Program-made: the position numbers and the translations under genes
The notes under the pieces: model-generated
What the model was told of the DNA's origin: nothing
Seen by the model: only the letters and a program-made list of their open reading frames with translations
Databases searched by the model: none
Part shown: piece by piece, positions 2,031-21,017 of the stretch
Layout of the letters: each line of letters starts with the position of its first letter
How positions within the stretch are numbered: position 1 is the stretch's first letter
Assembly: GCA_963811865.1 (NCBI GenBank)
Contig: CAWESZ010000013.1
Coordinates: 377,411 to 441,410 of the forward strand
DNA: 64,000 bases
Direction of reading: 5' to 3'
From: an uncultured delta proteobacterium
GTDB lineage: Bacteria; Desulfobacterota; Binatia; Binatales; Binataceae

Positions 2031-2296
2031 GGCTGCGGCGGCAGAGTTCATCTGTGTTCATCCGTGGTTAGTTTATTTCTGGCGCCTCAGCCCGTTCCCC
2101 GAATGCATTACAATCGACGCGCCGAGCCGAAGCCAATTCCTGTGGCTGCGTTGGCAGAGTTCATCTGTGTTCATCCGTGGTTAGCTTATTTCTGGCGCCT
2201 CAGCCTGTTCCCCGAATGCATTACAATCGACGCGCCGAGCCGAAGCCAATTCCTGTGGCTGCGTTGGCAGAGTTCATCTGTGTTCATCTGTGGTTA
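2031..2296. repeat. 113-bp tandem repeat, 2.3 copies; each unit opens with the 31-nt REP/MITE-like motif GGCAGAGTTCATCTGTGTTCATC(C/T)GTGGTTA
   Basis: Units start at 2040, 2153 and 2266 (period 113). Copies 1 and 2 differ at only 2 positions. Copy 3 ends after the motif. The motif contains the tandem decamer GTTCATC(T/C)GT twice. Confidence 0.95.
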
Positions 2297-2349
2297 AATT
2301 GTCCGGCAAGGGGCGGCGGGTTACCGGACCAGCCCCTACGGAGGCGAAA

Positions 2350-2802
2350 ATGAAAAGGCGCGACCAAATCAAGCTGACACCCGAGGAACAGGCGATATTT
2401 CTCCGCGACGCCCGCAACGCCGCCCTGGCGACCTTGGACAAGGACGGGTTTCCCCGCGTCGTCGCGATGAACTTCCTGGCCCGTGACGGCGCGATCCGTA
2501 TGACTTCGTACGGCAAGGCGCAAAAGGTGATCAACATTCAGCGCAATCCCAAGGTGGCCGTGATGGTCGAGACCGGCAGAACCTATTCAGACCTGCGCGC
2601 AGTAATGATTCGCGGCGAATGCCAGGTTATCGCAGACACCGCCACAGTCGAGGCGACCATGCACGCAATTCGCGAGAAAGATGCCGGCGGCGCCGCCCTA
2701 CCGCGCGGCCCGCTAGCGAGCGCACGCAAGCGGGTCGTGCTCAAGGTGATCCCAAAGAAAATCGCAAGCTGGGATCACTCCAAACTAGCCGGCCGGTACT
2801 GA
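2350..2802 (+). CDS. pyridoxamine 5'-phosphate oxidase-family (split-barrel, PPOX/F420-type) protein
   Basis: ATG 2350 follows GGAGG, in frame with track ORF 2290..2802. The sequence (LTPEEQAIFLRDARNAALATLDKDGFPRVVAMNF...VMVETG...RAVMIRG) is typical of the PPOX class. Confidence 0.7.
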   Translation: MKRRDQIKLTPEEQAIFLRDARNAALATLDKDGFPRVVAMNFLARDGAIRMTSYGKAQKVINIQRNPKVAVMVETGRTYSDLRAVMIRGECQVIADTATVEATMHAIREKDAGGAALPRGPLASARKRVVLKVIPKKIASWDHSKLAGRY

Positions 2803-2952
2803 GCAACCCGCGCCCACCCGGCCCCCCCGATTCCGCCGCCGACCCGGATCGCGCCCGCTATGCGCCAGGCCCATTCGCCCGCCGTTTCGAGTCCCTGCCA
2901 ATCCGGCTCCCCTGCGTTTGACTGTCGCGCATTGTTAGTGCATAGTAGCACG

Positions 2953-3135
2953 ATGCAAGGCACGCTGACCATCCGGATAGACGCGGCGCTCAAGCAGGAG
3001 GCTGAGAAGAAGGCCGCCGAGCGGGACGAAACGCTTTCGCAAGTAGTGCGGCGCGCTCTCCGCGATTACGTGTCCGAGCGCGGCCGGCGTGCGAGGTTCA
3101 CGCCCAAGGCGGATTCAAGTCGCAAGAGTGTATGA
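2953..3135 (+). CDS. ribbon-helix-helix (CopG/Arc-type) protein, antitoxin-like
   Basis: Internal ATG of ORF 2860..3135. MQGTLTIRIDAALKQEAEKKAAERDETLSQVVRRALRDYV shows the beta-strand plus two helices RHH pattern. Its stop overlaps the next start (ATGA at 3132). Confidence 0.7.
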   Translation: MQGTLTIRIDAALKQEAEKKAAERDETLSQVVRRALRDYVSERGRRARFTPKADSSRKSV

Positions 3136-3434
3136 GGCCCCAGAAGCCGGAAGCGAGAACGCAACATTCGATCGAGACACTGAAGCTACGTGGCTACAAC
3201 GATTTCATCGGTCATACCGTGCAACCGAACGGGACGCGCAAATGCGGAGCTTCGGAATGGCCGCATATAATCGAGCTGATAGCAGGGCCCTGTTATACCG
3301 GCGGCGGCTGGCACAACTTCGCGGCCGACGGCGTGTGCCAAGATTGCGGCATCAAGAGTGCCTGGGTATTCGGTATCGAAGGCGCCGATTCCAAACCAAT
3401 TTGGAGAAGATGGGGCCGGAGGCAAGCGAGATGA
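3132..3434 (+). CDS. hypothetical Cys/Trp-rich 100-aa protein, middle gene of the RHH cassette
   Basis: Track ORF. ATGA overlaps on both sides (3132 and 3431). Codon-position pattern looks coding. No recognisable family (CGASEW...CYTGGGWHNF...CQDCG). Confidence 0.5.
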   Translation: MRPQKPEARTQHSIETLKLRGYNDFIGHTVQPNGTRKCGASEWPHIIELIAGPCYTGGGWHNFAADGVCQDCGIKSAWVFGIEGADSKPIWRRWGRRQAR

Positions 3435-3664
3435 AACGAGTCTACCGTCTGACAGCGCAGGTACTCGAAACCGAGCTTCACAAGGCCGAAACCCACGGGT
3501 GTCAACGCCGGAGCGAAAGTACATCAGTGGGCCGGAGTGAAAATGCATCAGTTAGAGGGGCAGAGGAATCGTGGTTTGACTTCCGGCAGGGGGAGCGCGA
3601 GGGGGATATCCCCCTCGCTGTTGCCGCGAGTGGCTAGTCTCGTCGCGACGTGATCGGAGCAGTC

Positions 3665-4444
3665 TTATCCGGGTTCCTGGGGTGGCTGATCGTCACTGAT
3701 CCGGCGCTTGCTGTGTTTGAGCCTGAAGCTGTCGCCGTTGAGCTCGAGGATGTGAACGTGGTGGGTGAGGCGGTCGAGCAGCGCTCCGGTCAGGCGCTCG
3801 GAGGCGAACACGCCGGTCCATTCATCGAAGGGCAGATTGCTGGTAACGATGATCGAGCCGCGCTCGTAGCGCTGGCTGAAGACCTCGAACAGCAACTCGG
3901 CGCCGATCGGTGAGAGCGGAACGTAGCCCAGCTCGTCGACGATCAGAAGTTTGTAACCTGCGAACAGCCGTTGCAGGCGCAGCAGACGCTTTTCATCGCG
4001 TGCTTCGTGGAGCTCGTTGACCAGGGCGGCGGCGGTGGTGAAGCCGACCGGAAGACCCTTCTGGCAGGCGGCCAGCCCGAGCCCCAGCGCAATGTGGGTC
4101 TTGCCGGTGCCGCTGTTGCCGAGCGCGATGACATTCTCGCGGCGGGCCACATACTCCGAACGGGCCAGTTCCAGCACCAGGGTCTTGTTGAGCGAGGGGA
4201 TGGCGGTGAAGTCGAAGCTGTCGAGGCTTTTGACCGCCGGGAACCTGGCCTCCTTGATCCGGCGCTCGACGGTCCGCCGTTCCCGCTCGATCATCTCCAG
4301 CTCGGCCAGCCGCAGCAGGTAGCGGGCGTGGTCGACACCTTCGGCGGCGCACTGGCGGGCGAGCTTGTCGTACTCCCGCAGGAAGGTCGGCAGCCGCAGC
4401 GCCTTCAAGTGATGGGCGAGCAGCACCTGCGGGGTATCGCTCAT
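3665..4444 (-). CDS. istB: IS21-family helper ATPase IstB
   Basis: Internal ATG 4444 overlaps the istA stop (ATGA). Walker A GNSGTGKTH, LLIVDELGY, and the typical IstB C-terminus. Confidence 0.95.
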   Translation of the reverse strand: MSDTPQVLLAHHLKALRLPTFLREYDKLARQCAAEGVDHARYLLRLAELEMIERERRTVERRIKEARFPAVKSLDSFDFTAIPSLNKTLVLELARSEYVARRENVIALGNSGTGKTHIALGLGLAACQKGLPVGFTTAAALVNELHEARDEKRLLRLQRLFAGYKLLIVDELGYVPLSPIGAELLFEVFSQRYERGSIIVTSNLPFDEWTGVFASERLTGALLDRLTHHVHILELNGDSFRLKHSKRRISDDQPPQEPG

Positions 4445-5940
4445 GATGCTGCTCCCGCCAGCAGCCTCAGGTAGGCCCGGGCCGAGGTGGTCGCCACCGT
4501 GGCCTGCGGCAGGTAGGGATAGATCTTGAGGTCCAGCCGCGGCGGGCGGCGCTCGATCCGGCACAACACCAGATGCTTGACCGCATCGAAGCCGATCACG
4601 CCACGGGCGATCGCTGTTCTGACCCCGGCCAGCACATCGTCGGGGTGGAACACCTCCATCAAGCGCAGGACCTGGACGAACTCCCGCTTGCCGGGCTTGC
4701 CCATGCGGGCTTCGAGCAGCCGGCGCAGGGTCGCGAACTCTTCGGGCAACTGCCAGACGGCCAGCGGCGCGGCTTGATCCAGTGCGCCGATCTTCCGCTC
4801 CAGCAGCGCCAGATAGTGCAAGGGGTTGAAGACGAAGTCCTCGCGCTCATAGGACCGCGGATGACGAGCGATCTCCTCGGCGCCGCAGGCGATCACCACC
4901 TCGTGGACGTAGCCGCGGACCAGCACTTCGCGGTGGCCGTAGGCGGTCGGCACGGAGTAGTCGTTGCTCCGGTAGCGCACCAGGGACAACGAGCTGACCC
5001 GGGCCACCTTCTTCTCGCAGGCTTCGTAGGGAGTCGCCGGCAGCGCCAGCAAGGCGGCGCGGTCTCGCACCAGCCGCTCGCCGATGGTCTCATCATGACC
5101 ACGCAGCCGGTCGCCCAGCCGGCGCCGACAGTGCTCCAGCAACTGCGCGTTGAGCTCGGCGAAGCTGGTCGCTCGTGGGATTGGCACCATGAAGTTGCGC
5201 CGCGCGTAGCCGACCAACCCTTCGACCTTGCCCTTGTCGTTGCCCTTGCCCGGCCGCCCGAAGCGGTCGGCGAACAGATAGTGCGACTGCAGCTCGCTGA
5301 AGACTCTGGTCCGCAGCCGCCGGCCATCGCCCAGGATGCTCGCCACTGCCAGTTTGGTGTTGTCGTACAGGATCGAGCGCGGTACTCCGCTGAAGAACTC
5401 GAAGCCGGCGTTGTGCCCTTCACAGAAGGCTTCGCTACTCTCCGCCGGATAGGCCTGTACCAGGCAGCCGTCGCTGTGCGGCAAATCCATCGCGAAGAAG
5501 TGGATCTTTCGCTCCACTCCCCCGATCACCGCCCGCGCCTCGCCGAAGTCTACTTGCGCGTGCCCCGGATCGTGCCGCAACGGCACGAACATCTCGCGCT
5601 GCCGCTGCCGATGCTCGTGCACGTAGTCCTTGACGACGGTGATCCCGCCGCTATACCCGTGCTCGTCCCGCAACCGCTCGAAGATCCGCTTCGAGGTATG
5701 CTGCTGTTTGGCCGGCTGTCCCTTATCGTCCGCCAGGATTCGGTCAATGATCCCGATGAACGGATCGAGCTTCGGCCGCGCCGGCGGCTGGCTCCGCCGG
5801 TATCCCGGCGGTACCGAGAACGCCAGCATCTTCGCCACCGTCCGCGGATCGATACCGAATCGCCGCGCCGCCTCCCGCCGGCTCATCCCCTCAACGAAAA
5901 CCGCGCGCCGCACCTGCCCATACAGTTCCACGCCTTTCAT
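4441..5940 (-). CDS. istA: IS21-family transposase IstA
   Basis: 499-aa track ORF with an N-terminal HTH (MSRREAARRFGIDPRTVAKM) and an integrase/DDE core, followed by istB. Confidence 0.95.
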   Translation of the reverse strand: MKGVELYGQVRRAVFVEGMSRREAARRFGIDPRTVAKMLAFSVPPGYRRSQPPARPKLDPFIGIIDRILADDKGQPAKQQHTSKRIFERLRDEHGYSGGITVVKDYVHEHRQRQREMFVPLRHDPGHAQVDFGEARAVIGGVERKIHFFAMDLPHSDGCLVQAYPAESSEAFCEGHNAGFEFFSGVPRSILYDNTKLAVASILGDGRRLRTRVFSELQSHYLFADRFGRPGKGNDKGKVEGLVGYARRNFMVPIPRATSFAELNAQLLEHCRRRLGDRLRGHDETIGERLVRDRAALLALPATPYEACEKKVARVSSLSLVRYRSNDYSVPTAYGHREVLVRGYVHEVVIACGAEEIARHPRSYEREDFVFNPLHYLALLERKIGALDQAAPLAVWQLPEEFATLRRLLEARMGKPGKREFVQVLRLMEVFHPDDVLAGVRTAIARGVIGFDAVKHLVLCRIERRPPRLDLKIYPYLPQATVATTSARAYLRLLAGAAS

Positions 5941-6269
5941 CCCTCCGCCCTCTGCCCATCTTGGCAGATGGCCTGCCGCTGCCGGACTTTTGCTCCGGCG
6001 CGACCGGACTACCCGGCCGCTTCACTGAGGGATTTTCTCTCCGGCGCTCTCACACGGGCGTTTTGCAGAGCGCTACCCCCTTCTTCGCGACATCGCCCAT
6101 TGTCTGGCTCTGAGTTTCGGAAGCGCCGACCCAAACTTCCGGGCCGAACAATTTGCAAGTGCCTGCGGAATGCCGGAAATCGCCCGATGAGGATGCTCAT
6201 CGCCGGGCACTCAAAGGGCTCGTAGCTCCCGGTGTCTGCCGGCTCCCCGCATTCGTGGCTCTCGATGAT

Positions 6270-6704
6270 TTAGTCTTCTGTTTGGTCGTGGGTCGTCATT
6301 GTACCGAGGAGTAGGCGTATTTTTTTGATGACACGTTGAGGGCTTCCGAGCTGGTGCTCCCATATCCTTAGTACCGTCCAGCCGTCGCCGCGAAGAATGC
6401 GATTCACCGTTCGGTCGCGCTTGCGGTTTGCCGCGAGCTTTTTCTCCCAAAACCCGCGGTTGTTTGACGGCTGTGTACCGCACCTCGGGCAGCAGTGCCA
6501 GAAGCACCCGTCTACAAATACGGCAAGTCGCGCAGTCTTGAATGCAAAGTCGGGCCTGCCCTCGACGCGCGCATGACGCCGCCAACCATAGATGTGCGAC
6601 GCGCGAAGCAGCTCCAACAGCGCCAACTCCGTCGCGCGATTGCCGCGTCCTCTGATTCGCGACATCACCTCTGAGCGTTTTTCTTTGGTGAAAACGTCGC
6701 TCAT
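6270..6704 (-). CDS. vsr: very short patch repair endonuclease
   Basis: 144-aa ORF with SRIRGRGNRATELALLELL, RPDFAF, FVDGCFWHCCPRC and WTVLRIWEH, all hallmarks of Vsr. Confidence 0.93.
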   Translation of the reverse strand: MSDVFTKEKRSEVMSRIRGRGNRATELALLELLRASHIYGWRRHARVEGRPDFAFKTARLAVFVDGCFWHCCPRCGTQPSNNRGFWEKKLAANRKRDRTVNRILRGDGWTVLRIWEHQLGSPQRVIKKIRLLLGTMTTHDQTED

Positions 6705-6793
6705 TGCCGCTGCGGCTCCAGCGATAATAGAGGCATGGCGTTTCTGAACGAACGTGGTAACTTGGTCAACCAGATCCGATTCGGGGAGGCCAC

Positions 6794-7749
6794 GTGGCTA
6801 CAGCATTGGACCTTTTTTGCGGTGCGGGAGGCGGCAGCGCGGGAGCCCGCGCGGCGGGCTTCGACGTGATCGCCGCCATCGATATGTGTCCAATTGCGAC
6901 GCAGACGTTTAAAGCAAACTTCCCGAGTAGCCAGGTTTTCACCGAGCGCCTCGAAGGCCTGCATCCGGGTAATTTAGGCCGACGCTTGGGTAAAATCGAT
7001 CTACTGCTCGCCTCCCCAGAATGCACTAATCACACGTGCGCTAGGGGCTCTGCACCGCGCGACGAGCAGAGCCGTGCCACGGCCATGCAAGTAGTCCGAT
7101 ATGCAAGCGCCCTACTGCCGCGCTGGCTCGTACTCGAGAAACGTGATCCACATGCGCCCTTGGTCCCGCTACGCTGAATTGAAGGAAAAAATCCGCCGGT
7201 TGGGGTACAGTGTGACGGAACAGATACTCGACGCGTCCGATTTCGGCGTCGCGCAGACCCGCCGCAGACTTTTCATTGTGGGAGATCGCGAACGCCCACC
7301 GACGGTCGTCACAGAGAAGCGACGCGGTCGGCGTCGGGCAGCGAAATCTATCCTCGATCCGCCCGGCACCTGGGACACCACACCGCTATTTGCACCGACG
7401 AGAGCGCCCGCGACGCTCGAAAGAGCCCGGCGCGCCTTTGCTGCGTTGGGTGATCACGCGACTTTTCTCCTTGTGTATTACGGAACCGACGGGAGCGGCG
7501 GCTGGCAACCTTTGGGGCGCCCTCTTCGCACCATTACCACTATTGATCGTTTCGCGCTGATCCAGCCTTGCCGGAACAATCCCCGGATTCCGAATGCTGC
7601 AGGTACCCGAACTGAAGCGTGCGATGGGGTTCTCCGACAGCTTCGCGCTGCCAACTGGCACCCGCCGCGAGCGCGTCCGTTTGCTTGGTAATGCGGTCTG
7701 TCCTCCCGTCATGGAAGCAGTCGTGAGGGCATTGACCAAGCACGGGTAG
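6794..7749 (+). pseudogene. dcm: DNA (cytosine-5)-methyltransferase, interrupted by two +1 frameshifts
   Basis: Motif I DLFCGAGG and catalytic SPEC in frame 1. LVLENV is only readable after skipping one A of AAA 7139-7141. QTRRRLFIVG (motif VIII) is in frame 2. RMLQVPELKRAMGF...LLGNAVCPPV (motifs IX-X) is in frame 3, after the CCCC run at 7581-7584. Stop TAG at 7747-7749. Confidence 0.85.
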
Positions 7750-8057
7750 CCCCCGGGGATCGTCACTTCGGCTTCTTTTCCCCGGTCTCATTTGGCGGCG
7801 TCTGCAAAGCCTTTTTCTCATGAAACGAGATAATACCGGGTCGGGCACCGTAGCTGTGAAATCTATATGCTAGGTCATTCAGCAACGCTTCGCGAACACG
7901 AAATAGGACGGGGGATTTCTTCGCTTCCCCCCTAGACAATGACACCTGAAACCGCGAGTTGACCACCAGAAGTCGCGTTTTGCCCCCGATGGCGACCGGT
8001 GGACTGATCCACAGGGCCCCGGGGCCGTCCCCTTCGATTTCGATTCAAATGGCATTT

Positions 8058-9111
8058 CTAATCCCAGCAAATAGGGCAGTGGCCCTGGCTGCTGCTGCGC
8101 AAAGTCGCAGGCGGCTTGTATCTGGACGTAGAATCCACCGAAACCGGCCGTCGGTGTCCGCATAGTCCTTGCAAGCGAACTGCTCCGACGCGAGCTCCTT
8201 CGCCTTCGTGCCGAAGCGATTCTCGAATTTCGCTGCGTGCGATGGCGGAAGTCCAATAACCGCACCGCGATCGTGTAGACGAGGTGCCTTCCCCTTCCGC
8301 AATCTGAAGCAGACGATTTAATCTGGCCGCCTCCTCCGCCTTCAGTTCCCTGCGGATGTCTTCGGGCCCGAACGCGCCCCTCCACACCCTCTCGTCGGCA
8401 GGCCGGCCTTCAAGGAAGGCGATGCGGTCCGCCAGAATAGGAAGCAGCGTCCCATTGACAGCTTGGAACCGATCCCTCTCCACGTGGGCTTCCCCAACGG
8501 CCTCAACAGCTAGCCTGCACAGCAGGCGTCCCAGTTCCCGATCGTGCTTCGGATCGGCAACGGCAGTGGTCAGATCAATAACAGCCGACACGGTTTCAGC
8601 GGCTGCATCGAGTACGCGCTCCTCCCAATTGAAAAGCGCCGCTATTTTGAGCCCGCTCGCTGACTATCTTTTCAATGGCGGCCACGAGCTTGCTAACGTT
8701 CCTTACTTTTCCCGCTGAGTCGAGATGTTTCGTCTTATCGAGCGATGCTACCGCGAACGGCTTCCGTACCCCCACGACATGTTTGTCGAGAAACTCTCGC
8801 AGAGCATTTGCCTGGCCCGCGAACCTGGTCCAGAGGACGATAATGTAGGGACCGGTCGGGGCAAGACTTTCCTCGATGAGGCCTCCGATCATTGCGAAGT
8901 GTCTGGCATGATTGCCGTTTCCAGCGCCGCTCTCGTTGAGATGAAGGTCTGCAAAGATGACACGAACTCGCGGACAGCTCTTCAACTCACTCACGTCGCC
9001 AGTAAACAAAATCGGCAGGCAGGCCGCGCCAAACCGGTTCAGGGCATCCGCAAGCCCTCGGAGATCCAGTTCGTTATCGTCGATGATGATGATCCGCGGT
9101 GCGGGGAGCAT
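8058..9111 (-). pseudogene. response-regulator receiver (REC) domain protein with an unrecognised helical output domain; at least 1 frameshift and an uncertain 3' end
   Basis: ATG 9111 directly follows the TAA of the upstream kinase gene. REC residues present: IIIIDDN, VIFADLHL, IIVLWT, VRKPF. The frame is lost in an A4 run (plus-strand TTTT 8645-8648) and continues as IAALFNWEERVLDAAAETV...LLQIAEGEG (track ORF 8058..8591). More coding-like pieces in other frames reach about 7879. Confidence 0.65.
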
Positions 9112-11251
9112 TTATTTACCCTTCCTGAAAACCAAGGCGGCGACCGCTCCATCAAACCCGTCTGGCAAGTCGACCTCCCCGGCATGCGGTAGGACCAGCT
9201 TTCCCCCACTGAGCTCCCATCGCCAAGTTCGCATAATACAGCCCGAGCCCCATCCCAGTGGGCTTGCGTGTAAAGAACGGTCGCACGAGCAGTTCTGGAT
9301 CATCACCTTGAAATCCTGGGCCGGTGTCCGCCACGACCATGGCTGGCCCGAGGTCGAATTCGTCGCTGGCCCCTATGTACAACTTTCGCGGGCTGGAGCC
9401 ATCGTCAGCCGGTTCGTCCGGCCACCTCACCCTCATCCAATACAGCGAGTTATCGATGAGATTGTTGACGGCGCCCAAAACGAGGCTGAACGAAAACTTC
9501 GCCTCGAATCCCGAACCGTTTGTTTCTAGAAGCGGACAGTAGAGCCGTACGCGATGATGGCGAAAGCGCAAAACGTTGAACCGCCGCGCAGCCTCGACGA
9601 GCTTTCGGGCTGAATGCTTCTCCTGTCTGTCGCGACGTAGTAGGACGGAGAAGCCGTCAAGCAGATGCATGAGATCGCGCGCTTGGCGCTCCGTGGCATC
9701 CGGATCCGCTTCTCCACGATCACTTGGTGAAGAGCGCGCACGCCCCGCTCAACCTCATGGAATACGACGGCAAGGTTGAGTCCAGACATTCCCGCGGTTA
9801 AGAGCGTATCCTGCATATCCCGGTAGTCGTGCTCGATTTTCGTTACATACGGCTCGAACGTCTTGAGGATACCTCTGTCGTTCAGAGCCTTCCGAAGATC
9901 CTGGATAGGCTTTCTAATTCCGACCGTGTCGGAGTTGCCCGTGGTTCCGGTTACCCTCCGAATTCGATCCTTATCGATTTGCCTCTCGGACTCGAGCGCC
10001 GCGATGGCGCCCAATACAATGCGACGAAGATTAGCGCACGCAGCGTTCTCGACAAAGCCTTCGCGGTTAGTTTTCTCAACCAGTAGATTAGACCTTTCCA
10101 GTGAGAGATGGACAGCGCCCAGGATGATGTTGCGGCTAATACCACGCGTCGGAGCATTTACGCGTCGCAGGTCCAGTCCCAACCAGTCATCCCCGGCTTC
10201 GCCGTAGTTGTACACGCGAATACCATCCCGATATACACGCACGCCCCCATTTTCATCGAGGTAGTCGGCTAGAAGCTGTACATCCGCCAATCGCCGCAAC
10301 ACCTCCCGATCTCTATCGTACACATAGAATTCTCCCGTAACGGGCCCGATCCCACGTAATGTGCTCCCGTCCGCTACGATCTTTTTCTCCATTCGGTCGT
10401 CGCCGGATGCCGGCGGGAGCTTGAGTCTGTCGCCGCGTTTCCGCACCAACCTTGGCTCGAGCTTGAGGCCGGGCACCTGCCTAAATTCATATTTCCAACC
10501 GAACCCCTTCCGGTCGAGCCGAAATGCAAATTTCCAAATCGCCCTGTCGAGGAATTTCTCGACATCGGGAATGTCGGCAATCCAGTCTTCTTCCCCGGGG
10601 ACTTCCAGCCTCGCGGAAAAACCGCTCGGTTCTCTGAACGGCGAGCAGATGGAGGTTATCTGCTCTGCAGCCGACGAACCTCATTGCGCGACCACTGATT
10701 CTGTCGAAGCTCACTGATCTCCACCACCGTTCCGGTCGTCTTTCCCGTGAATAGCTCGGGTGAACGAACCCGTATGGTGACCGGAGCCTGGGACAAAAAG
10801 GGCCTCGCGATTAATTTGTGCCAGTCGATCTTGACGACGCACTCGTCAGCACCCTTTGCGCGTGTAATTAGGCGGATTCTGTTGCCGAGCTTGTGCACGG
10901 CAAACCGCCCAAGCCCCTTCTCGCCGAGCGGTAATCTCCGATGTTTCTTCGAGCGTGCGAGCGACAGACGCTGCTTCATCCGGAAATCATCGCCGGGCAC
11001 GAGCCATACATTTTCTAGCTGCTCGATGTCATCCCCTCGCCGTCGTCGCGGACAGTGATGGTCGGTTGGCGTTGCCGAAGATCGAGGGTCACAACTGCCT
11101 CATTCGCGTCGGCATCATAAGCATTTTTCACCAACTCGAAGACCGCAAGCCGCGCACTCCCTATCAACTCGTCACCAAGCAACTGAAGCAGCCTGGCCCG
11201 TGGCCGGAACGATCTACGAATTTCACTTTCCACTCTACGGTTCACCTTCAA
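9112..11251 (-). pseudogene. fusion of an N-terminal MORC/Hsp90-like GHKL ATPase module with a C-terminal histidine-kinase core (DHp+CA); needs 4 frame corrections
   Basis: Stitched from track ORFs 11015..11251, 10656..11000, 9526..10476 (frame open from ~10690), 9152..9670 and 9112..9306. N-terminal motifs: ELVKNAYDADA, VRDDGEGM, GEKGLGRF. C-terminal motifs: H-box-like VVFHEVERGVRAL, N-box NNLIDNSLYW, G1 VADTGPGF, G2 TGMGLGLYYA. Frame changes near 11015, 10665, 9705 and 9225. Confidence 0.7.
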
Positions 11252-11292
11252 ACTCTTGCACTCGCAGAAGCGAACATGCTACCACCGCTGAA

Positions 11293-11600
11293 TCAGCATT
11301 TTCGATGGTGCACGCCGGAGACCGTGCTGGCGCAGAGCGCCTCGAAGCGGGGCGTCAGCCCCTCGCCAAACACTCGCGTACCCAAAAAGAGCCCTGAATG
11401 GCCACCCGGCGCGCCCGGCAGCCGCAGACCGCGAAGCTCGGCGGGACCGGAAAGTAACGCCCGGTACCTCACCTCACTCGCCCGTGGCCCGATGCCCCGA
11501 CTCCAGCAGCCCACGATTGCGTCGCGATACTTCCCGTAACGGTGGCGCTGATCGCGCAGCACGCCGTCGCGCCGAAAACCGCCCTTCTCGTACGATGCGG
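11293..11600 (-). pseudogene. possible degenerate 3' remnant of an alpha/beta (epoxide-type) hydrolase gene
   Basis: SYEKGGFR...LRLPGAPGGHSGLF loosely parallels EFKRTGFRG...VLAGAGHWTQ of the intact hydrolase at 26776..27729. There is no start and the reading is degenerate. Confidence 0.3.
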
Positions 11601-11699
11601 GCGCTCGAGGGCTCGTCCTGTTCGACCGCCTGAGGGTCTGGTCGGCGGCGCCGCCCAGACCGGCAAGGTCGGCGGGCCCTTGCCGGCCTAGTTGGCTCG

Positions 11700-11822
11700 C
11701 GGGGAACCGGCAGCCAAGACGCGGTCGCGAGCGCCAAAAACGCCACGACGGTCATCAGAGCAAATGCGAGCGTGAATCCTCGGGCCGCTGACGCAGCCCT
11801 GGCAACGATAGCGCCTACCAAG
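11700..11822 (-). pseudogene. 3' fragment of an MFS transporter gene, paralogous to 27814..29155
   Basis: VGAIVARAASAARGFTLAFALMTVVAFLALATA aligns with the C-terminus GAIVARAASADGGFTLAFGLMTVAALLALATA of the intact MFS gene. DNA similarity is visible over ~100 nt and is lost at ~11822. Confidence 0.55.
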
Positions 11823-11869
11823 CCGGCGCACGCCCTACCTCACCAGCGCGGCGGACGGCAGGAACTCCG

Positions 11870-12063
11870 GTCCGCTCGTGATCGTCGGACCGGCGAGGCT
11901 CAAAATTTATACGTAGTGCCGACGTTGGAGAATGCCAAATTTCCCACCGGGCCAGTGCCTTTAAGGAAACCTCCGGTGAGAAAGCTGGCCAGATTGACAG
12001 CGATCGTCTTATGCAAATCGAGCGCCCAGCGCAGCTCGAAATTCGGCTGGCTTCCGATATACC
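11870..12063 (-). repeat. displaced copy A of the OMP gene 3' end (last 53 codons plus ~30 nt downstream), in-frame and intact
   Basis: Reads YIGSQPNFELRWALDLHKTIAVNLASFLTGGFLKGTGPVGNLAFSNVGTTYKF* (stop 11900-11902). It aligns with 12921..13113 apart from scattered substitutions and one 1-nt indel. Confidence 0.9.
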
Positions 12064-12074
12064 GCGGCCGCGGT

Positions 12075-12111
12075 GGCAGAGTTTATCTGTGTTCATCTGT
12101 AGTTACATTGG
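12075..12111. repeat. solo copy of the REP/MITE-like motif seen in the 2.0-2.3 kb tandem repeat
   Basis: GGCAGAGTTTATCTGTGTTCATCTGTAGTTACATTG versus 2266-2301 GGCAGAGTTCATCTGTGTTCATCTGTGGTTAAATTG: 33/36 identical, same orientation. Confidence 0.9.
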
Positions 12112-12138
12112 CGCCGCGCTCGCCGGAACTCCCGGCCG

Positions 12139-12516
12139 TTATTCGAGGCGCAGGCCGGAGAATCGCCGGAAGTCATCGCGATTCGCGGTCGCGAGGCTGG
12201 CGCCTACTCTGATCGCGGTCGCGGCGATCATGCAGTCCAAAAGCGAGCCCCGGCGCCGTCCCGAATGGTTGAACAGTTCCGCGGCCTGAATCGAATCCTC
12301 CACCACGAAAGGCTCCGGCTCGCCGACCATCGCCGCCGCCAGCGCAAGCTGCCGCTGGTCCAGAGGGCCGCAGAGAAACTCGGCCCATCCGATGGCGCTC
12401 ATGCCGAGCTTGACGCCATCCGCCATCCAGCGGCGCAACTGCTTGTCTTCGCCGGAATTCGCCTTCAGCGCCCCGATCAGAAAACTCGTATCGAGATGAA
12501 CTATCGCTTGCGCCAT
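12139..12516 (-). CDS. vapC: PIN-domain toxin (VapC type)
   Basis: Internal ATG of ORF 12139..12567. IVHLDTSFLI (N-terminal Asp), GWAEFL, DCMIAATA and TANRDDF give the conserved acidic residues of PIN. Confidence 0.85.
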   Translation of the reverse strand: MAQAIVHLDTSFLIGALKANSGEDKQLRRWMADGVKLGMSAIGWAEFLCGPLDQRQLALAAAMVGEPEPFVVEDSIQAAELFNHSGRRRGSLLDCMIAATAIRVGASLATANRDDFRRFSGLRLE

Positions 12517-12785
12517 TCGTGACGAGCCAACGTCCTTGCGCGCTCGATGCGGACCTTGCGCGACCACTCGTCAGTCCGTTGTCTGGTGAGCTTGACGCTC
12601 TTCTGCAATTCGTCCAACGCTTGCAAGGGGGACGGCGCCGGGCCTAGCTGATCGCGGGCGACTACGTCAATCGCGCGGCGCAAAACTTCCGATTTCGAGA
12701 CCTTCCACCGGGCGGCCACCCGGTCGAGTTTGCGGATCGTTTCCACATCCAGAGCGTAGGTCGATTTGATCGAGGTTCGGGCCAT
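12501..12785 (-). CDS. vapB: ribbon-helix-helix antitoxin (VapB type)
   Basis: ATG 12785. MARTSIKSTYALDVETIRKLDRVAARWKVSKSEVLRRAI is an RHH pattern. Overlaps the vapC start by 16 nt. Confidence 0.8.
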   Translation of the reverse strand: MARTSIKSTYALDVETIRKLDRVAARWKVSKSEVLRRAIDVVARDQLGPAPSPLQALDELQKSVKLTRQRTDEWSRKVRIERARTLARHEWRKR

Positions 12786-12920
12786 ACCAGAGCCATTATA
12801 TGGCCATACCATGAGCAGATTCCACCGGACGCGAAGATGCCGGCCGCCGCCGGCCCCTGATCGCCCGACCGGTGTCAGTATCGCATCCAAGTAGGAGTTG
12901 ACCGAACGAAAGTGGCACAG

Positions 12921-13113
12921 GTCCGCTCCTGATCGGCCAACCGGCGGGGTTCAAAATTTATACGTAACGCCGACGTTGGAGAATGCCACATTTCCCGCCG
13001 GGCCCGTGTCCTTAAGGAAACCTCCGGTGAGAAAGCCGGCCAGATTATTGCGATCGTCGTATGCAAATCGAGCGCCCAGCGCAGCTCGAAATTCGGCTGG
13101 CTTCCGATATACC
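12921..13113 (-). repeat. copy B of the OMP gene 3' end, still attached to the gene but one nucleotide shorter than copy A
   Basis: 163 nt from stop to boundary versus 164 nt in copy A (AGATTATTGCGATCG versus AGATTGACAGCGATCG). The terminal beta-strand AGFLTGGFLKDTGPAGNVAFSNVGVTYKF* is therefore out of frame with the gene body. Confidence 0.9.
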
Positions 13114-14429
13114 TCGCTCTGCTGCCATCGCTGGGGCGGATTAGCGCACCGCCGATTTGGTACACGCCGTCGTCAAGGCTCTGGCGCCAGAACCAGCCCC
13201 AATCGAAAGCACAGGTGACGTTCGGCAGGAGGGCGAACATCAGCACCGGATGCACATCAAACAAATTGTATGGTCCGAACATGGTCAGCTTCGGGCCGAA
13301 ATACGCTCCGCGCGGGAACAAGGGATTGAATGTGTTCAGCGTGCCGCCGTTGGGATGGTCCCCGCCGCTGGCGATATCCGCGCGCAGGGCGAGCCGTGGC
13401 GCGAAGCGCACCGGCAACGTGTAGCCCGTTTCGGTCGCGACCGTCCACGCGTTGATGTAGTTATTCCCGAACGTGCCGAGCTGATAAACCAGCTCCCAAT
13501 TGTAGTCCAAGCCGGCCTCGAATGGTGCCCCAGCCGGATGATTGAACAATCGCGTGCCGATACTGTGGCGAATCTCGCGCCCACTGCCTTGCTGATAGGT
13601 CGCGCGCGTCGTATCGACTCCGAGGTAATAGAGGTCCGCCTGCCCGTTCTGATCGATCAGACGCAGCGGCACCGTGCCATAAGCTCCCCAGAACGTCTGT
13701 TGCGAGGTCGGACGATCGTCGAACGTTCCGGTGTTCTGTTCGGTCGGCTTGACGCCGAAGACTTCAAGCCGCAGCGTTTCCGTTTTAGCGATAACTCTCG
13801 CGCCGTAAAAGCTGGACTTCACATTCACGCCTTCGTTGTTGTCCACGAGCCTGCCGGTTCCATAGACCAGCTCTTGCTCGCCGAGCCGCACGGTGACCGA
13901 GCGCTGGTCGTCGAGTCCGCTGCTTAGATCGATAAAGGCTTCGTGGAAGTCGCCCTGGTCCTCGTCGATCCCCGGGCGCGGCCCGCCGTTGTTGCCCATC
14001 TCCTTTTCGTACTGAAATGAAGCAAACAGGCGCACGTGCGGACCCGGCGGTCAGACTTGCTTCCGGGATGACGCGTTGCAGCCAGTAGCCGCTGATAGTT
14101 TGCGGCCCCGCGCCCCACATCGCATTCTGGAACCATTCATATTCGGTACGGTTTTCCAGGCCGAGGGTCAGATAAAAGTTCCCGGCCTGGTCGAGCGGCA
14201 CATACTTGAGCGGATCCCACAAGTCCGTGCGGTTCGCAGGATCCTTAAGAAAACTGAAATTCTCGTCGGCTTGATCGACCGGTGTCAGCGGCGGCCGAGC
14301 GGGATTGGACGGTGGTCCCGGCGGCATCGGCTGAGGAGTCTGGGCCAACGTCCGACCAGACGACATCAGTACTATGACGAGCGCGGAAACACTCGATGCG
14401 ACCAGTTTCCGGCGTGGGCGGCGCATCAT
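12951..14429 (-). pseudogene. alginate-export (AlgE-like) family outer-membrane beta-barrel protein, two apparent frameshifts
   Basis: Signal peptide MMRRPRRKLVASSVSALVIVLMSSGRTLA. DLWDPLKYVPLDQAGNFYLTLGLENRTEYEWF is typical of the family. Frame break near 14050 (track ORFs 13785..14429 and 12875..14035) and again near 13045, just before the C-terminal ...YKF. Confidence 0.75.
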
Positions 14430-14464
14430 CTCTGTCAGGAGGAGCCGTCAGGTCTGCTGCTTAG

Positions 14465-14523
14465 CAGGGTGTTGAGAAAGTAAGACCAAATGAGTTGGAG
14501 AAATGTGCGCGCTCAACACCCTG
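14465..14523. repeat. 12-bp perfect inverted repeat (CAGGGTGTTGAG ... CTCAACACCCTG) with a 35-nt loop
   Basis: Read directly from sequence. Lies between the oxidoreductase stop and the OMP gene start. Confidence 0.8.
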
Positions 14524-14550
14524 CATGAAACTGGCTTCCTTCCTTAACCT

Positions 14551-14569
14551 TCTCTCCCTCTGGGAGAGA
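14551..14569. repeat. 8-bp stem hairpin TCTCTCCC-TCT-GGGAGAGA, a REP-like palindrome
   Basis: Read directly from sequence. It sits ~45 nt downstream of the stop at 14615 on the minus strand. No U-tract follows, so I do not call it a terminator. Confidence 0.6.
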
Positions 14570-14614
14570 TAAGAGTGAGGGCGCAGGCTGTGAAAATCCT
14601 TTTTCAACAGCCTG

Positions 14615-15588
14615 CTAGGGCGCCAGGACGAGTCGCCCGCGCACTTCGCCACGCTCCACCTTTCCGTAGGCCGCAGGTCCGTCTGAAAGCGCAAGCACCC
14701 CGTCGATTGAAGGTGCTCGGAATGTGCCTTGGTCAAAAAGTGGCGTGAGAGCTTCGAGCAGCACACCCGACGCGATCGCATCGCGCGCGCGGGTATCCAC
14801 GCCAAATAGCCGGCTCTCATTGTGATAAAAGTCGATAAGATCGAAACTTACGCGGCGATCGCCTGTCGACGCGATCTCCAGCAGCCGGCCGCGATGGGAG
14901 AGCGCTTTCAGCGCCGGCTCGAACATCGGTCCGCCGACGCTGTCGAAAATGACTTCGGCCGCCTTTTCCCTGCGTCGCACCGCGCACGATCGATTCGAGC
15001 GGCTCGCCACCCGGCACAAAGTACTCATCCAGCGCGCCGGCTGCCGGCGCATCCGCGGGCGAGCGGCCGCTGGTCCACTCCGATTACGCGGGCACCGCGC
15101 CACTTTCCGATCTGCGCCGCCGCGCCGCCAACGCCTCCGTTCGCGCCGATTACCAGCAAGGTCTCGCCGGCAGCGATCTGCGCGTATTCGATCAGCCCGA
15201 GCCAGGCCGCGAGGTACGTTACTCCGATTGCCGCGGCCTGCTGCAGCGAAAGCGCGCGGGGCTTACGGCGCAGACTCGCGATCGGGACGGCGATCAGCTC
15301 GGCGTGACTGCCATCGACCGAGTAGCCGATTTCGCCGCCAGTTCCCCAGACCTCCGCCCCTATCCATTCCGATGGACCCTGGACGACGGTTCCTGCATAG
15401 TCGCGCCCCGGCACGCGGGGCAGGGTGGTATGTTCCATCTTGCCCTGGACGTTCTTAACGTCGCTTGGGCTGATCGAAGCTGCCGCCACCTTGACGATAG
15501 CGGTCCCCGAATCGGCCTTGGGATCAGCGAGTTCGACCAGACGCAGGTTCGCGACCGGGCCGAATTCGCTGAATTGCAGTGCGCGCAT
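14615..15588 (-). pseudogene. MDR-superfamily quinone oxidoreductase / zinc-type alcohol dehydrogenase-like, two apparent 1-nt insertions
   Basis: MRALQFSEFGPV...LPRVPGRDYAGTV...LVIGANGGVGGAAAQIGKWRGARVIGVD, then ADAPAAGALDEYFVPGGEPLESIVRGATQGKG (second frame, ORF 14817..15017), then AEVIFDSVGGPMFEPALKAL... (third frame, ORF 14615..15103). Confidence 0.8.
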
Positions 15589-15591
15589 CGC

Positions 15592-15828
15592 TCACGGCTC
15601 CGCTCGCCGCGATGGCGTCTGAGACGGGGCCAAGCCGCTCGGTCCGGCGCAATCCGGAGCATGCTGAGCCGGCGACGACACCCGCCGATCGACCGCGATA
15701 TAACCGATCGTCATCGCCATCACGAGCAGCGCGCCGAGGATCATGGGCGGCGCCGGCGACGGAATTCCGAACGCGCGGCAGGCGAAACCCAACGCGAAGG
15801 CCAGCACGATGCCGATCACGGCTTTCAT
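15592..15828 (-). CDS. XapX-domain small membrane protein
   Basis: MKAVIGIVLAFALGFACRAFGIPSPAPPMILGALLVMAMTIGY carries the XapX/DUF1427 SPAPP signature. ATGA overlap with the upstream paralogue. Confidence 0.7.
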   Translation of the reverse strand: MKAVIGIVLAFALGFACRAFGIPSPAPPMILGALLVMAMTIGYIAVDRRVSSPAQHAPDCAGPSGLAPSQTPSRRAEP

Positions 15829-16016
15829 TGCTTATCCATCTGCACCAGGGTCTTTCCCGGCGGCAGGATATAATCGGCGGTGACAAAGCCCACGGTCATT
15901 GCCAGCAGCAGGCATGCTCCAATCAGTCGCGGCGGCGCCGGCGACGGGATGTCGAAGAACCGGCATCCAGCGCCGATTACCAATCCCAGGGCGAGTCCAA
16001 TAACGGCGGCGGTCAT
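15825..16016 (-). CDS. XapX-domain small membrane protein (tandem paralogue)
   Basis: Internal ATG 16016. MTAAVIGLALGLVIGAGCRFFDIPSPAPPRLIGACLLLAMTVGF. Confidence 0.7.
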   Translation of the reverse strand: MTAAVIGLALGLVIGAGCRFFDIPSPAPPRLIGACLLLAMTVGFVTADYILPPGKTLVQMDKQ

Positions 16017-16027
16017 GATGTTCCTCC

Positions 16028-17835
16028 TCAGAAAGCGAAACAATCGCAACCAAAGTCCCATAGTGAATCAGGATGCGGAAGATGCGAACGCAGTCGGCTG
16101 GCGAGCTTCACGGCTCGAAGCCTGGCTCCGGTCTGTGCGGCCGACGCACGAAAGTAACCGCCGTAGTTCTTGACCGGCGACCAGTCTGGACTCACCGGCA
16201 GCGGCGGCGGAGCCAGCTTTGTGAAAGATCCCGCCGCATACACCACCTTGCCGCCCACTATCGTCAGCACCGACTCGAGTCTTTGATCTGATCCTCGGGA
16301 ATCGAAAAGTAGTCGGCGGAGAGCACGCTGAGATCCGCCAATTGCCCCGGCGCGATGGAACCCTTTTTGCCGTCCTCGGAGGAAAACCAGCTACTTCCGA
16401 CCGTATAGAGACGCAGCGCTTCGCCGCGATCGAGACGATTGCTTTCCGGGTAGAGAGCGGTGCCTCCGACGGTCCTGCCGGTGATGAGCCAGTACAGAGA
16501 GACGAAAGGATTGTAGCTCGAAACTCGCGTCGCATCCGTCCCGGCGCCGACCGGTACGCCCAATTCCAGCATTCGCCGGATCGGCGGCGTGCGCTGCGCC
16601 TGCTTTGCGCCATAGCGATCAACGAAATACTCCCCCTGAAAGGCCATCCGGTCCTGCACCGCGATACCACCGCCGAGCGCTTTGACCCGTTCGATGTTGC
16701 GATCGGAGATCGTCTCGCAGTGATCGAAGAACCAGTGCAGGCCGTCGAATGGAACTTCACGATTCACTGCTTCGTAAACGTCGAGGGCACGTGTGATGGT
16801 CTCGTCGTAGGTAGCGTGGAGGCGAAACGGCCAACGGCTTTCGGCAAGATGGCGGACGACCGTCTTGAGTTCCGCTTCCATCACGCCCGGCAACTCCGGA
16901 CGCGGTTCGAGGAAATCCTCGAAATCCGCGGCCGAATAGACCAGCATCTCGCCGGCGCCATTCGCCCGGTAGAAATCGTCGCCCGCGCCAGGCTTCGTGA
17001 GCCGCGTCCACGACTGGAAATCTCCCAGTTCCTGTTTGGGCTTCTGAGTGAACAGGTTGTAGGCCACTCGGACAGTGAGTTCACCGCGCTCATGAAGCTC
17101 GCTGACGACACCGTAGTCATCCGGGTAGTTTTGAAATCCGCCCCCGGCGTCAACCACGCTCGTAATACCGAAACGGTTGAGTTCGCGCATGAACAGGCGC
17201 GTCGAATTGATCTGGTCTTCGCGCGAAAGCCTGGGCCCCTTGGCGAGCGTGGAGTAGAGGATCATCGCGTTCGGCTTCGCGATCAGCAGCCCGGTTGGAT
17301 TCCCGTGCCGATCGCGTTCGATCTCACCGGCCGGCGGCGGGGGCGTATCTTTCGTATAGCCGACGGCGCGCAACGCTGCGCCATTCAGAAGCGCGCGATC
17401 GTACAGATGGAGCACAAAGACCGGGGTGTCCGGCGCGGCGGCGTTGATCTCGTCCAGCGTGGGCATCCGACGCTCGGCAAACTGGAACTCCGTCCATCCG
17501 CCGACTACTCGGACCCATTGCGGCGCCGGCGTCCGCGCGGCTTGCTCTTTCAGGATGCGTAGCGCATCCGCCAGCGAAGGCACGCCGTCCCAGCGCAGCT
17601 CCATGTTGTAGTTGAGCCCGCCGCGGATCGGATGCATGTGCGAGTCGTTGAGCCCCGGGATTACGGTACGGCCGCCGCAGTCAATCACGGTCGTTGCGGT
17701 GCCGCGTTGCCGCAGAATTTCCTGATCGGCGCCGGCGGCGGTGATTTTTCCGTCTTTGATAGCGACCGCCTCGACCAACGACGGAGCGTTGTTCGTGGCG
17801 ATTTTGCCGTTATGAAGAATGCTGTCCGGCTGCAT
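16028..17835 (-). CDS. amidohydrolase-3 family metal-dependent hydrolase (YtcJ-like), apparent frameshift near 16268
   Basis: ATG 17835 after AAGGGAG. GLNDSHMHP metal motif. The C-terminal SVLTIVGGKVVYAAG continues in ORF 16028..16270 after a 1-nt gap in AAAGAC-TCGAG. Confidence 0.85.
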
Positions 17836-17891
17836 ACACGACTCCCTTGCTGACGCTGACAATTGAGACGGCCGACTCTCGGCCCGCGCGT

Positions 17892-18593
17892 TTACTTGTG
17901 CGCCGCGGCCGGGACGGCGTACTCCGGGAACTTGGTCGGCGCCGCCCCGTGGACCATCGTGTAGGCATACTCAACGCCGATTCCGTATGCTCCGTAGTGA
18001 CTCTTCACGATGTCCATGACCGCGTCATACGTGTCGGTCAGGGCCCAATCGCGCTGCCACTCGAGCATCACCGAGAGCGAGGTAACCGGCTTCGCGCCCG
18101 CCTGGATCACCCGCTTCATCGCGTTGTCGTGAGCCAGCTGGCTTACGTCGCCGCAGCAGTCTTCGACCACATAGATCTCGTAGCCGTCGTGGATCGCCTG
18201 CACTGTAGGAAGCGCGACGCAGGTCTCGGTCCACAGTCCGGACAGCACGATCTTTTTCCGCCCGGTCTTCTCGACCGCCGCGACGAAGTTCTTGTCGTCC
18301 CAGGAATTCATCGAGGAACGCTCGATTGGCGACTGCCCCGGAAAGACGGCCTGGATTTGCGGCCACATGTTGCCGCTGAAGCTCTTGCTCTCGACCGTGG
18401 TCAAGATGACCGGGACGCCGAATACCCTCGCCGCCTTGGCGAGCGCGACATTGAAATTGATGATCGATTGGCGATCGAAATTCGACACCCCGAAAAGCAT
18501 CTGGGGCTGCAGATCGATCAGAGCTACGACGCAGTTGTCCGGTGTAAGCAGGCCTTTCTCGCTGCGTTTGGCAAGACCGCTGGTCTGAGACAT
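17892..18593 (-). CDS. isochorismatase-family hydrolase (YcaC-like)
   Basis: Internal ATG 18593. ALIDLQPQM, VPVILTT, and LSGLWTETCV (catalytic Cys context). Confidence 0.85.
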   Translation of the reverse strand: MSQTSGLAKRSEKGLLTPDNCVVALIDLQPQMLFGVSNFDRQSIINFNVALAKAARVFGVPVILTTVESKSFSGNMWPQIQAVFPGQSPIERSSMNSWDDKNFVAAVEKTGRKKIVLSGLWTETCVALPTVQAIHDGYEIYVVEDCCGDVSQLAHDNAMKRVIQAGAKPVTSLSVMLEWQRDWALTDTYDAVMDIVKSHYGAYGIGVEYAYTMVHGAAPTKFPEYAVPAAAHK

Positions 18594-18826
18594 GACTTCC
18601 TCCGTTTCGAGTGAGCTGACGAATGCACGGGCCTTCTGCAAGCTCCGTTCCCAATGGACGTTCGCGTGATTTTCCACGGTGCGTCGAGGTTTCAGCAGAA
18701 AAAGTCGATCACTGCGCGCTCGCGAATTTTCGCGAATTCGTGAAGAGTCGCGACTCGGCCCCGTTCGTTATCGTCGCGATGCCGCGATTTTCGCCGTGCT
18801 CGCCTTGTTTACGCAGCGCGGCGCTC

Positions 18827-18842
18827 TGGCACGTCCCTCGCA
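18827..18842 (+). promoter_or_regulatory. candidate sigma-54 (-24/-12) promoter TGGCAC-GTCCC-TCGCA
   Basis: GG and GC are separated by exactly 10 nt. The site lies 25 nt upstream of the STAS gene ATG (18867). The direct/near-palindromic repeat TCGCGAATTTTCGCGAATTCG at 18718-18745 is in a UAS-like position. A sigma-54 activator gene is adjacent. Confidence 0.5.
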
Positions 18843-19062
18843 AAGCAGGGCCGTCAGTCAAAACCGATGCTCAAGATCGTAAGGTCCACGAATCGCGATG
18901 CAGTCGTCTTCTCTCTCAGCGGCCGTATCGACCTGGAGCACACCGCACTGTTGCAGGCGGCGTTCGATGCAGAGACTTTCGCCATCATGGTGGACATGCG
19001 AGAGGTGAGGCGCGTCGACCGAGAGGTCGTGCCGACTCTCGCGCGCTGGAACTCCGAGGGTA

Positions 19063-20871
<1,809 letters not shown>

Positions 20872-21017
20872 CTCGGCGAAACCTTCCCGACGATAGCGTG
20901 CTTGGCGCTCAGGTGCGAGGATTTGTCGGCATGGCGCGTGGCGGATCGACAAACGCCACGGGCTCCTGATAAGCAGCGAATCATCCGTGAAACTCTCGCC
21001 GACCCGGAGGATATGCG

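Follow-up and report, generated by a model that had tools for sequence, protein, structure and literature searches.

Behind the gene for an outer-membrane protein (OMP) of the alginate-export type, on the reverse strand of a 64,000-nt stretch of a Binataceae genome (the window), lies a vapBC toxin–antitoxin (TA) pair, and beyond that pair the 3′ end of the OMP gene occurs a second time. This report concerns that duplication and the insertion that it appears to record. The window belongs to G000, a metagenome-assembled genome (MAG) of 4.9 Mb in 13 contigs (those cited here are C3, C5, C12 and C13), with an estimated completeness of only 75%. G001 and G004 are other species of the same genus, G002 and G130 are further Binataceae relatives, and L-numbers denote metagenome contigs or extracted loci. 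Coordinates given without a prefix are window positions. In the order in which they are read, the features of the locus are as follows.

12951..14429, reverse strand: gene for an alginate-export-type OMP β-barrel, ~492 codons (Pfam PF13372, E=1.7e-52)
12903..13116, reverse strand: copy B, the attached OMP 3′ end (last 54 codons, stop codon and ~50 nt downstream)
12875..12891, reverse strand: 17-nt relic of a cas6 3′ end (…TTGGATGCGATACTGA) at the upstream cassette edge, from an alignment of the upstream regions of 16 loci
12137..12849, reverse strand: core of the mobile vapBC cassette, 713 nt, with the same boundaries elsewhere
12501-12785, reverse strand: vapB, a ribbon-helix-helix protein (Pfam PF01402, E=1e-4)
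12139-12516, reverse strand: vapC, a PIN-domain protein (Pfam PF01850, E=6e-14)
12067..12110, reverse strand: motif like a repetitive extragenic palindrome (REP; AACCACAGATGAACACAGATRAAC…CTCTGCCACCGCGGCC), its 3′ side cut off at copy A
11852..12066, reverse strand: copy A, the displaced OMP 3′ end (codons 11903-12064, stop codon 11900-11902 and ~48 nt downstream)

The OMP combines its PF13372 match with an N-terminus of the form MMRRPRRKLVASSVSALVIVLMSS…AQ, and both copies of the gene end close on …TYKF, with the C-terminal aromatic residue of a β-barrel protein. The copies form a direct repeat of ~215 nt (11852-12066 and 12903-13116), slightly wider than the 190 bp (11870-12063 and 12921-13113) given in an initial reading made from the letters of the DNA (the sequence-only reading). 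They align in two blocks of 85% and 97% identity with a 1-nt indel between them, the scattered substitutions and single indel of that reading, and are about 90% identical overall (blastn, 90.4% over 198 nt). A blastn search of the whole 4.9-Mb genome found A and B as the sole copies, and the repeat is not a dispersed family. The 836 nt between the copies hold only vapB, vapC and the REP-like motif, as had been claimed. The gene list and Pfam matches of this insert include no integrase, transposase or other mobile-element gene, and tRNA and Rfam scans of positions 1-16000 returned no tRNA, tmRNA or known RNA as a possible attachment (att) site.

Within the cassette, vapB and vapC overlap (12501-12516) and the toxin gene follows the antitoxin gene, the gene layout of a type II VapBC. 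The acidic PIN residues of VapC, picked out by eye, are D8, E45, D93 and D114, and a promoter/operator region at ~12790-12830 carries TATAAT and GGTATGGCC repeats. We predict a type II toxin–antitoxin pair. The source names of close VapC homologues point to an uncultivated member of Candidatus Binataceae.

Relatives, haplotypes and the working gene end

Relatives preserve the empty site. In G001 and G004 the OMP gene is present once, its 3′ end is not repeated and no vapBC follows it, and none of 39 metagenome OMP orthologues (at most 81% amino-acid identity) has vapBC or a second gene end, the outcome that the sequence-only reading had expected of orthologous loci. The insertion itself is found again in L074, an independent assembly from a different sample that is 94.7% identical to G000 over 17196-12460. 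Here an OMP gene of 492 codons is followed by vapB, a truncated vapC, the REP motif and a displaced gene end, copy A′. The REP/copy-A junction is identical to that of G000 (…CCGCAGCC joined to ACGGTATATCG), and A′ continues for 77 nt past its stop codon in DNA homologous to the native downstream of the OMP gene in G001. Schematically, a G001-like ancestral state X-S-N stands beside X-S-[vapBC-REP]-S-N in G000 and L074, S being the segment present twice. The locus reads as an insertion with a 215-bp target duplication, not as tandem paralogues or an assembly artefact, because L074 shares the junction and its A′ runs into G001-type downstream DNA. The footprint of an insertion at the OMP 3′ end, leaving one working attached end and one displaced end, is thereby supported by both the empty sites and L074. 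In L074 (4703-4790), vapC is deleted from ~codon 16 to just before the REP motif and vapB is intact; the cassette there seems to be degenerating, its toxin lost.

Which of the two ends works is a separate question. As assembled, copy A reads through to …FSNVGTTYKF and a stop codon in one frame, and the …FSNVGVTYKF of copy B is out of frame with the gene body; the assembled OMP gene has apparent frameshifts at ~14039 (one G gained) and ~13047 (one C lost). L015, a Joint Genome Institute (JGI) metagenome contig, matches the window from 17084 to 12063. Over 17084-13050 it is 99.9% identical and differs by 4 substitutions against 5 single-base indels (16285, 15056, 14963, 14039 and 13047), and the open reading frames that these indels break are all conserved (one indel falls in an amidohydrolase gene, and two each in the genes for a quinone oxidoreductase and the OMP). 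The C absent from G000 at 13047 is present in L015 and L017-L019. The OMP is intact at 492 amino acids in G001 and L074, with uninterrupted reading frames in L015 (458 amino acids) and L018 (490 amino acids), and the Ku gene of G000 is also split (C5:151627-152159). Because indels outnumber substitutions, orthologues are intact, completeness is low for so few contigs and Ku is split, the frameshifts at 13047 and 14039, with the three nearby, are most likely consensus indel errors of the assembly. A further single-base indel relative to near-identical contigs lies at 12790, and the indel density of the assembly is seemingly ~1 per kb. Apparent pseudogenes of this indel-prone MAG, most of which would be consensus errors, are therefore not to be trusted for biological interpretation.

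Two statements of the sequence-only reading change meaning in this light. That only the displaced copy keeps the β-barrel C-terminus in frame is true of the assembled letters and most likely an artefact as biology, because the 1-nt deletion at 13047 is probably an assembly error; the second break placed near 14050 exists in the assembly at ~14039 and, judged against L015, is probably a consensus error as well. The displaced copy cannot be taken as the in-frame end, since in L074 it is the frameshifted and decaying one: A′ has a 1-nt deletion and many substitutions. In G000, 6/7 of the copy-A-specific changes are nonsynonymous, and copy B is 93% identical in nucleotides to its G001 orthologue, versus 90% for the gene body, with conservative amino-acid changes. 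By this pattern of change, copy B is the working gene end and copy A a non-functional, decaying relic.

The locus is a hypervariable hot spot of recombination, where three or more haplotypes occur. L015-L019, drawn from several samples, are 97.7-99.3% identical to G000, matching it up to 12063 and then diverging. Downstream, this haplotype (followed in L016 and in L073, the latter being JGI 3300075371) continues with small genes over ~3.4 kb, together with a DUF433/DUF5615 pair, and rejoins G000 at 2910-2228 in a PNPOx-family gene and a REP. Repeats matched by the downstream region of L016 were considered as gene-end relics and are intergenic repeats instead. Within the shared part, a mosaic patch (13023-12443; the OMP tail, vapB and the 5′ part of vapC) separates G000 from L015-L019 by ~25 substitutions and a 6-nt indel, with flanks that are ~100% identical. 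The source allele of the patch was not found, and an L074-like donor is ruled out, L074 being ~90% identical to both alleles.

In G000, the native DNA past the short stretch downstream of copy A is replaced by a G000-specific island. Two further gene-end relics lie at its near side, head-to-tail and on the strand of copy A.

11699..11829, reverse strand: relic of an MFS transporter gene, last ~43 codons (83% nucleotide and 77% amino-acid identity to the 3′ end of C13:405227-406459)
11467..11613, reverse strand: relic of a GNAT acetyltransferase 3′ end (80% nucleotide and 68% amino-acid identity to the 3′ end of C13:706496-707104)

The MFS relic marks the start of the island. After both relics come a methylase/Vsr/GHKL-kinase cassette and then an IS21 element, and the two relics may be scraps of that cassette's former sites. 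Exact-sequence look-ups with the G000 VapB, VapC, Vsr and a 171-amino-acid island protein gave no match. The point at which the L015-L019 matches end (12063) had suggested that copy A was itself a G000-specific novelty brought in with the island, a view overturned by L074. Collinearity of G000 with G001 and G004 covers only ~8 kb (12947-20926) in a heavily rearranged genus, and the far border of the island was not locatable by synteny with these two genomes.

Some neighbouring features complete the picture of the region. The REP-like core (AACCACAGATGAACACAGATGAAC) has 29 copies in the G000 genome, and the variable segment 2911-12066 is bounded on either side by the motif in direct orientation; the left REP is amplified as a 113-nt tandem unit at 2031-2301, and a paralogous block of PNPOx gene and REP lies 8 kb left of the window (C13:371567-371833). 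After its PNPOx gene and REP, L073 has a type I CRISPR-Cas locus at 2006-10881 (cas6, cas3, the cas7-like DevR, cas1, cas2 and cas4), and G000 has a PLD-SNF2 helicase gene at the corresponding place (1-1773). Synteny within the genus is scrambled beyond the ~8 kb mentioned above; inside it, the order of the OMP and quinone-oxidoreductase genes is swapped in G004 (L014, which is G004:C5, 7590-10143) relative to G000 and G001 (12951-15588).

The cassette and its scar at other genes

The 713-nt unit has counterparts with identical limits in 12 further Binataceae genomes (68-93% nucleotide identity) and on contig L020. On L020 it stands between two 37-44 nt copies (86%) of an alkyl-sulfatase 3′ end, and the copy after vapC bears the native sulfatase terminus and downstream DNA; the G000 orthologue (C12:369127-369173) is the corresponding empty site. 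A TPR gene carries the cassette between duplicated 3′ ends of 147 nt in G001 and 144 nt in G002 (95% identity), with an empty site on G000 contig C5 and, in G002, a second TA pair (PIN and Phd/YefM) between the repeats. In G130 the cassette sits between cas6 and cas3, flanked by two copies of the cas6 end (55 nt, 78%). It directly follows cas6 without detectable duplication in L086, L087 and L089 and with duplication in L092, intact cas6 ends (…TFGLGKYRI and a stop codon) preceding it in all of these. The targets (OMP, TPR, sulfatase and cas6), with repeats of 215, 147, 37-44 and 55 bp, share no boundary motif.

Relics of cas6 also lie at the edges of the cassette in the OMP and TPR loci. The 17-nt relic upstream of vapB at the OMP locus looks like a leftover of the cassette's earlier home, and longer cas6 relics are found in L081 and L082. 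At the TPR locus of G001, the upstream cassette edge is a 245-nt, internally deleted cas6; here (L082, which is G001:C6, at 1256-1500) the internal deletion has left only the first ~35 codons and the last ~15 (…YRVTFQATETLDLPGYPGSTLRGALGHAFRAV joined to RYQMVRHGATFGLGKCRMRC and a stop codon), and the remnant travels with vapBC. A cas6 relic also follows vapC in G001, joined to the TPR copy at ATCGG, five nucleotides shared between the two. Nested relics of this kind suggest that the cassette moved as a fragment carrying scraps of its former site and generated a new duplication at each site. We considered a circle, excised by repeat-to-repeat recombination, as the form transferred from cas6 to the TPR gene and rejected it: the two relics in G001 correspond to one and the same portion of cas6, which means that a linear piece of DNA including both repeats moved.

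Once in place, the repeats do not seem to diverge independently. Those of the TPR locus are 95% identical within a genome, above the 86-88% found between genomes, and L074 has private variants that are present in both A′ and B′. The flanking repeats undergo gene conversion, which blurs the origin of copy B.

A scan of G000 for local direct repeats, followed by inspection of the results, extends the pattern to other cargo, with repeats of 37-281 bp overall. A glmM-type phosphoglucosamine-mutase gene (C13:225427-229560) has three copies of its 3′ end (226828-226971, 227899-228037 and 229278-229379; S1 to S3), arranged as an array in which a DUF4258/MqsA-like helix–turn–helix pair lies between S1 and S2, and a BrnT and CopG/BrnA pair between S2 and S3. 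Around a HicB/HicA pair (C3:318575-319600) it is the 5′ end of a MiaB-like gene, with ~60 nt upstream of it, that is duplicated (244 bp). The displaced fragment precedes the pair and the intact MiaB-like gene follows it, the mirror image of the 3′-end case. A lone DsbA-like gene and a lone ORF6N gene lie between duplicated ends of neighbouring genes (168 and 140 nt). Judged by these repeats, the scar is not specific to the vapBC cassette.

Origin of the duplication

We favour, with a probability of roughly 55%, a one-step insertion of vapBC and REP into the OMP 3′ end with a long target duplication, in an ancestor of the strain. A 0.7-kb vapBC cassette with its REP-like element would have entered the gene end at a staggered break or by template switching, duplicating ~215 bp (54 codons and ~50 nt). 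No dedicated recombinase would be needed; host break repair or illegitimate recombination would have made the join with little or no microhomology. The upstream copy B would complete the gene and be kept by selection, and the downstream copy A, displaced, would decay. An insertion near a gene end would survive only when the duplication leaves one intact copy of the gene, and this survival would explain the bias toward gene ends. The flanking repeats would later exchange sequence by gene conversion, and an addictive TA pair would penalise its own loss through recombination between them. A single step is favoured by the non-homologous targets that the cassette entered for the first time and by the 5′-end duplication around HicAB. 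A Ku homologue is present in G000, as context for the mechanism and not as proof of it.

Several observations count against a single step. The REP/copy-A joint shares ~1 nt (G), and the microhomologies at the junctions overall are short (1-5 nt); the joining mechanism itself is one that we infer from footprints only. About half of the cassette copies in other genomes have no flanking duplication within 1.5 kb. Moreover, L015-L019 have the arrangement OMP-vapBC-REP without copy A, and their REP unit is more complete, extending past the G000 junction as other REP units do. If the duplication arose in one step, that haplotype must have had its copy A replaced later.

The last point leads to an account that would explain the locus about as well, and so tells against the single step, although we find it less likely on balance: a two-step displacement of the 3′ end by homology-facilitated illegitimate recombination between variants of the locus. 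A plain insertion of vapBC and REP downstream of the OMP gene would first have given the L015-type haplotype; donor DNA of that type would then have paired through the OMP gene with a vapBC-free relative, and been joined illegitimately, from within its REP unit, to codon 437 of the OMP gene there, so that the recipient's own OMP end was left behind as copy A. Five contigs from several samples show the donor arrangement; the REP unit, full in them, is cut short in G000 and L074 precisely at the junction, and the same model has been proposed for the orphan 3′ ends of type VI secretion system (T6SS) and Rhs loci (PMC5361080). The cassettes beside cas6, both without (L086, L087, L089) and with (L092) a duplication, and the recombining character of the OMP locus, with its three or more haplotypes and its mosaic patch, fit the same account. 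Yet it needs two events at each locus and supposes uptake of DNA by natural transformation in a lineage that is uncultivated. The cas6-derived fragment, moreover, entered the TPR, OMP and sulfatase genes without a homology anchor and still produced duplications, and the HicAB pair duplicates a 5′ end.

The sequence-only reading had proposed instead an att-like duplication left by an integrating element that brought its own gene end and is now a bare TA module. Spelled out, this would be a site-specific integrative element, of the kind of e14 or phage 21, with copy B as its replacement end and A and B as attR and attL, since deleted down to vapBC. TA pairs are often located at the ends of integrative elements, which speaks for such an origin. 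The geometry and size also match icd and its C-terminal pseudogene icdC beyond the element, with the attached end intact (PMC13626634). But there is no integrase gene at the G000 locus, in L074 or in the L015-type flanks; the deletion that reduced the element must have stopped exactly at the att core in two lineages; and one cassette in four unrelated target genes, with duplications of differing lengths, has no common core. A replacement end brought from outside might also be expected to stand apart, whereas copy B is not more divergent from G001 than the gene body is. We regard att-like integration as improbable. Still less probable is a tandem duplication of the OMP gene in which most of the second copy was deleted and vapBC came to lie between by chance: the 5′ limit of copy A could be the end-point of a deletion, and local direct repeats are frequent in G000, but no relative examined has two full tandem OMP genes, the limit is the same in G000 and L074 and adjoins native downstream DNA, and other genes that carry this cassette show the pattern too. 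An assembly artefact, a contig that wrongly combines the OMP 3′ ends of two strain variants, is the most improbable of all. The assembly is error-prone, with many single-base indels and 75% completeness in only 13 contigs, but the REP/copy-A junction offers no sequence overlap to mislead an assembler, and L074, from its other sample, has the same structure and junction with diverged sequence. Of the overall interpretation first given to this locus, the insertion footprint with a displaced gene end stands, and the att-like integration and the assignment of the functional copy do not.

The insertion at this locus may be an instance of something wider. The observation is real and more general than the locus alone showed. 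It is possible, and we put this forward tentatively, that Binataceae have a general route of cassette insertion, without an element-encoded recombinase or with an unknown one, that duplicates 40-280 bp of a gene end; along it, TA pairs would settle at the ends of housekeeping genes, hop with scraps of their former sites and build integron-like arrays. How chromosomal TA cassettes spread without a transposase or integrase is a long-standing loose end, and the label 'mobile' has come mainly from their patchy distribution. A traceable mechanism for their movement would follow, and insertion with long target duplication would be independent of a restriction enzyme. Here one cassette can be followed through its scars, with duplicated ends, nested relics, empty sites and several haplotypes in one population. 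The presence of the scar around TA pairs of the RNase type, and around single genes, points to a process driven by the host, with break repair, template switching and homology-assisted illegitimate recombination as candidates, and the repeat lengths, junction microhomologies, gene-end bias and gene conversion between repeats form a data set on which these can be tested.

Comparison with known systems

That e14 and phage 21 integrate into icd and supply a replacement 3′ end was reportedly described by Hill et al. in 1989. The last ~50 codons of icd likewise occur twice: the attached copy keeps the gene functional, a pseudogene of the C-terminal part is found past the element, and chimeric ends arise when the copies recombine (PMC13626634). 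There, e14 is a 15-kb prophage with a tyrosine integrase, a fixed att core and one target, whereas the insert described here is 0.84 kb, has no integrase and shows variable targets and repeat lengths.

C-terminal displacement and orphan arrays are said to have been reported by Jackson et al. in 2009. In Rhs, contact-dependent inhibition (CDI) and T6SS arrays, as here, displaced 3′ ends lie downstream of an intact gene and modules enter beside a conserved gene (PMC5361080). Those systems, however, exchange polymorphic toxin tips; here ordinary housekeeping or envelope genes merely receive the insert, and the end that is displaced is itself without a function.

The TA cassettes of super-integrons are also complete TA operons with their own promoter, small and mobile, in arrays separated by repeats, but they carry attC and are moved by IntI at attI (PMC2654758). 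In our arrays the repeats are copies of host gene ends, and there is neither attC nor an integron integrase.

The closest likeness is to restriction–modification (RM) systems. Insertion of RM gene complexes with long target duplication was reportedly described by Nobusato et al. in 2000 (in Gene 259:99). Such insertions are described for RM systems of all types; they lack mobility genes, their repeats measure 46-423 bp and frequently run across a start or stop codon, and cutting of the DNA by the RM enzymes is suspected as the common cause (PMC2853133). In both cases a small addictive unit without mobility genes is flanked by long, variable repeats (46-423 bp for RM systems, 37-281 bp here) that occur only once at the empty site in a relative and commonly include a stop or start codon. 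Set beside the definition of Furuta et al. 2010, our locus has repeats of >30 bp that are single-copy at the empty site and not dispersed, and an insert of <20 kb without mobility genes; its cargo is VapBC and not an RM system, so that the footprint agrees in kind and differs in the class of cargo. Two papers that mention both long target duplication and TA systems cite only the RM work and report no such insertions of TA cassettes (PMC3874152, PMC2654758). The differences lie in what travels and in what can be followed. Here the cargo is VapBC, BrnTA, a DUF4258/MqsA-like pair, HicAB or single genes, and no DNA-cleaving enzyme accompanies the cassette; one cassette is traceable through four targets by its nested relics, and serial insertions make gene-end arrays, as at the glmM-type gene. 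The footprint is known from RM systems; here it surrounds TA pairs and single genes.

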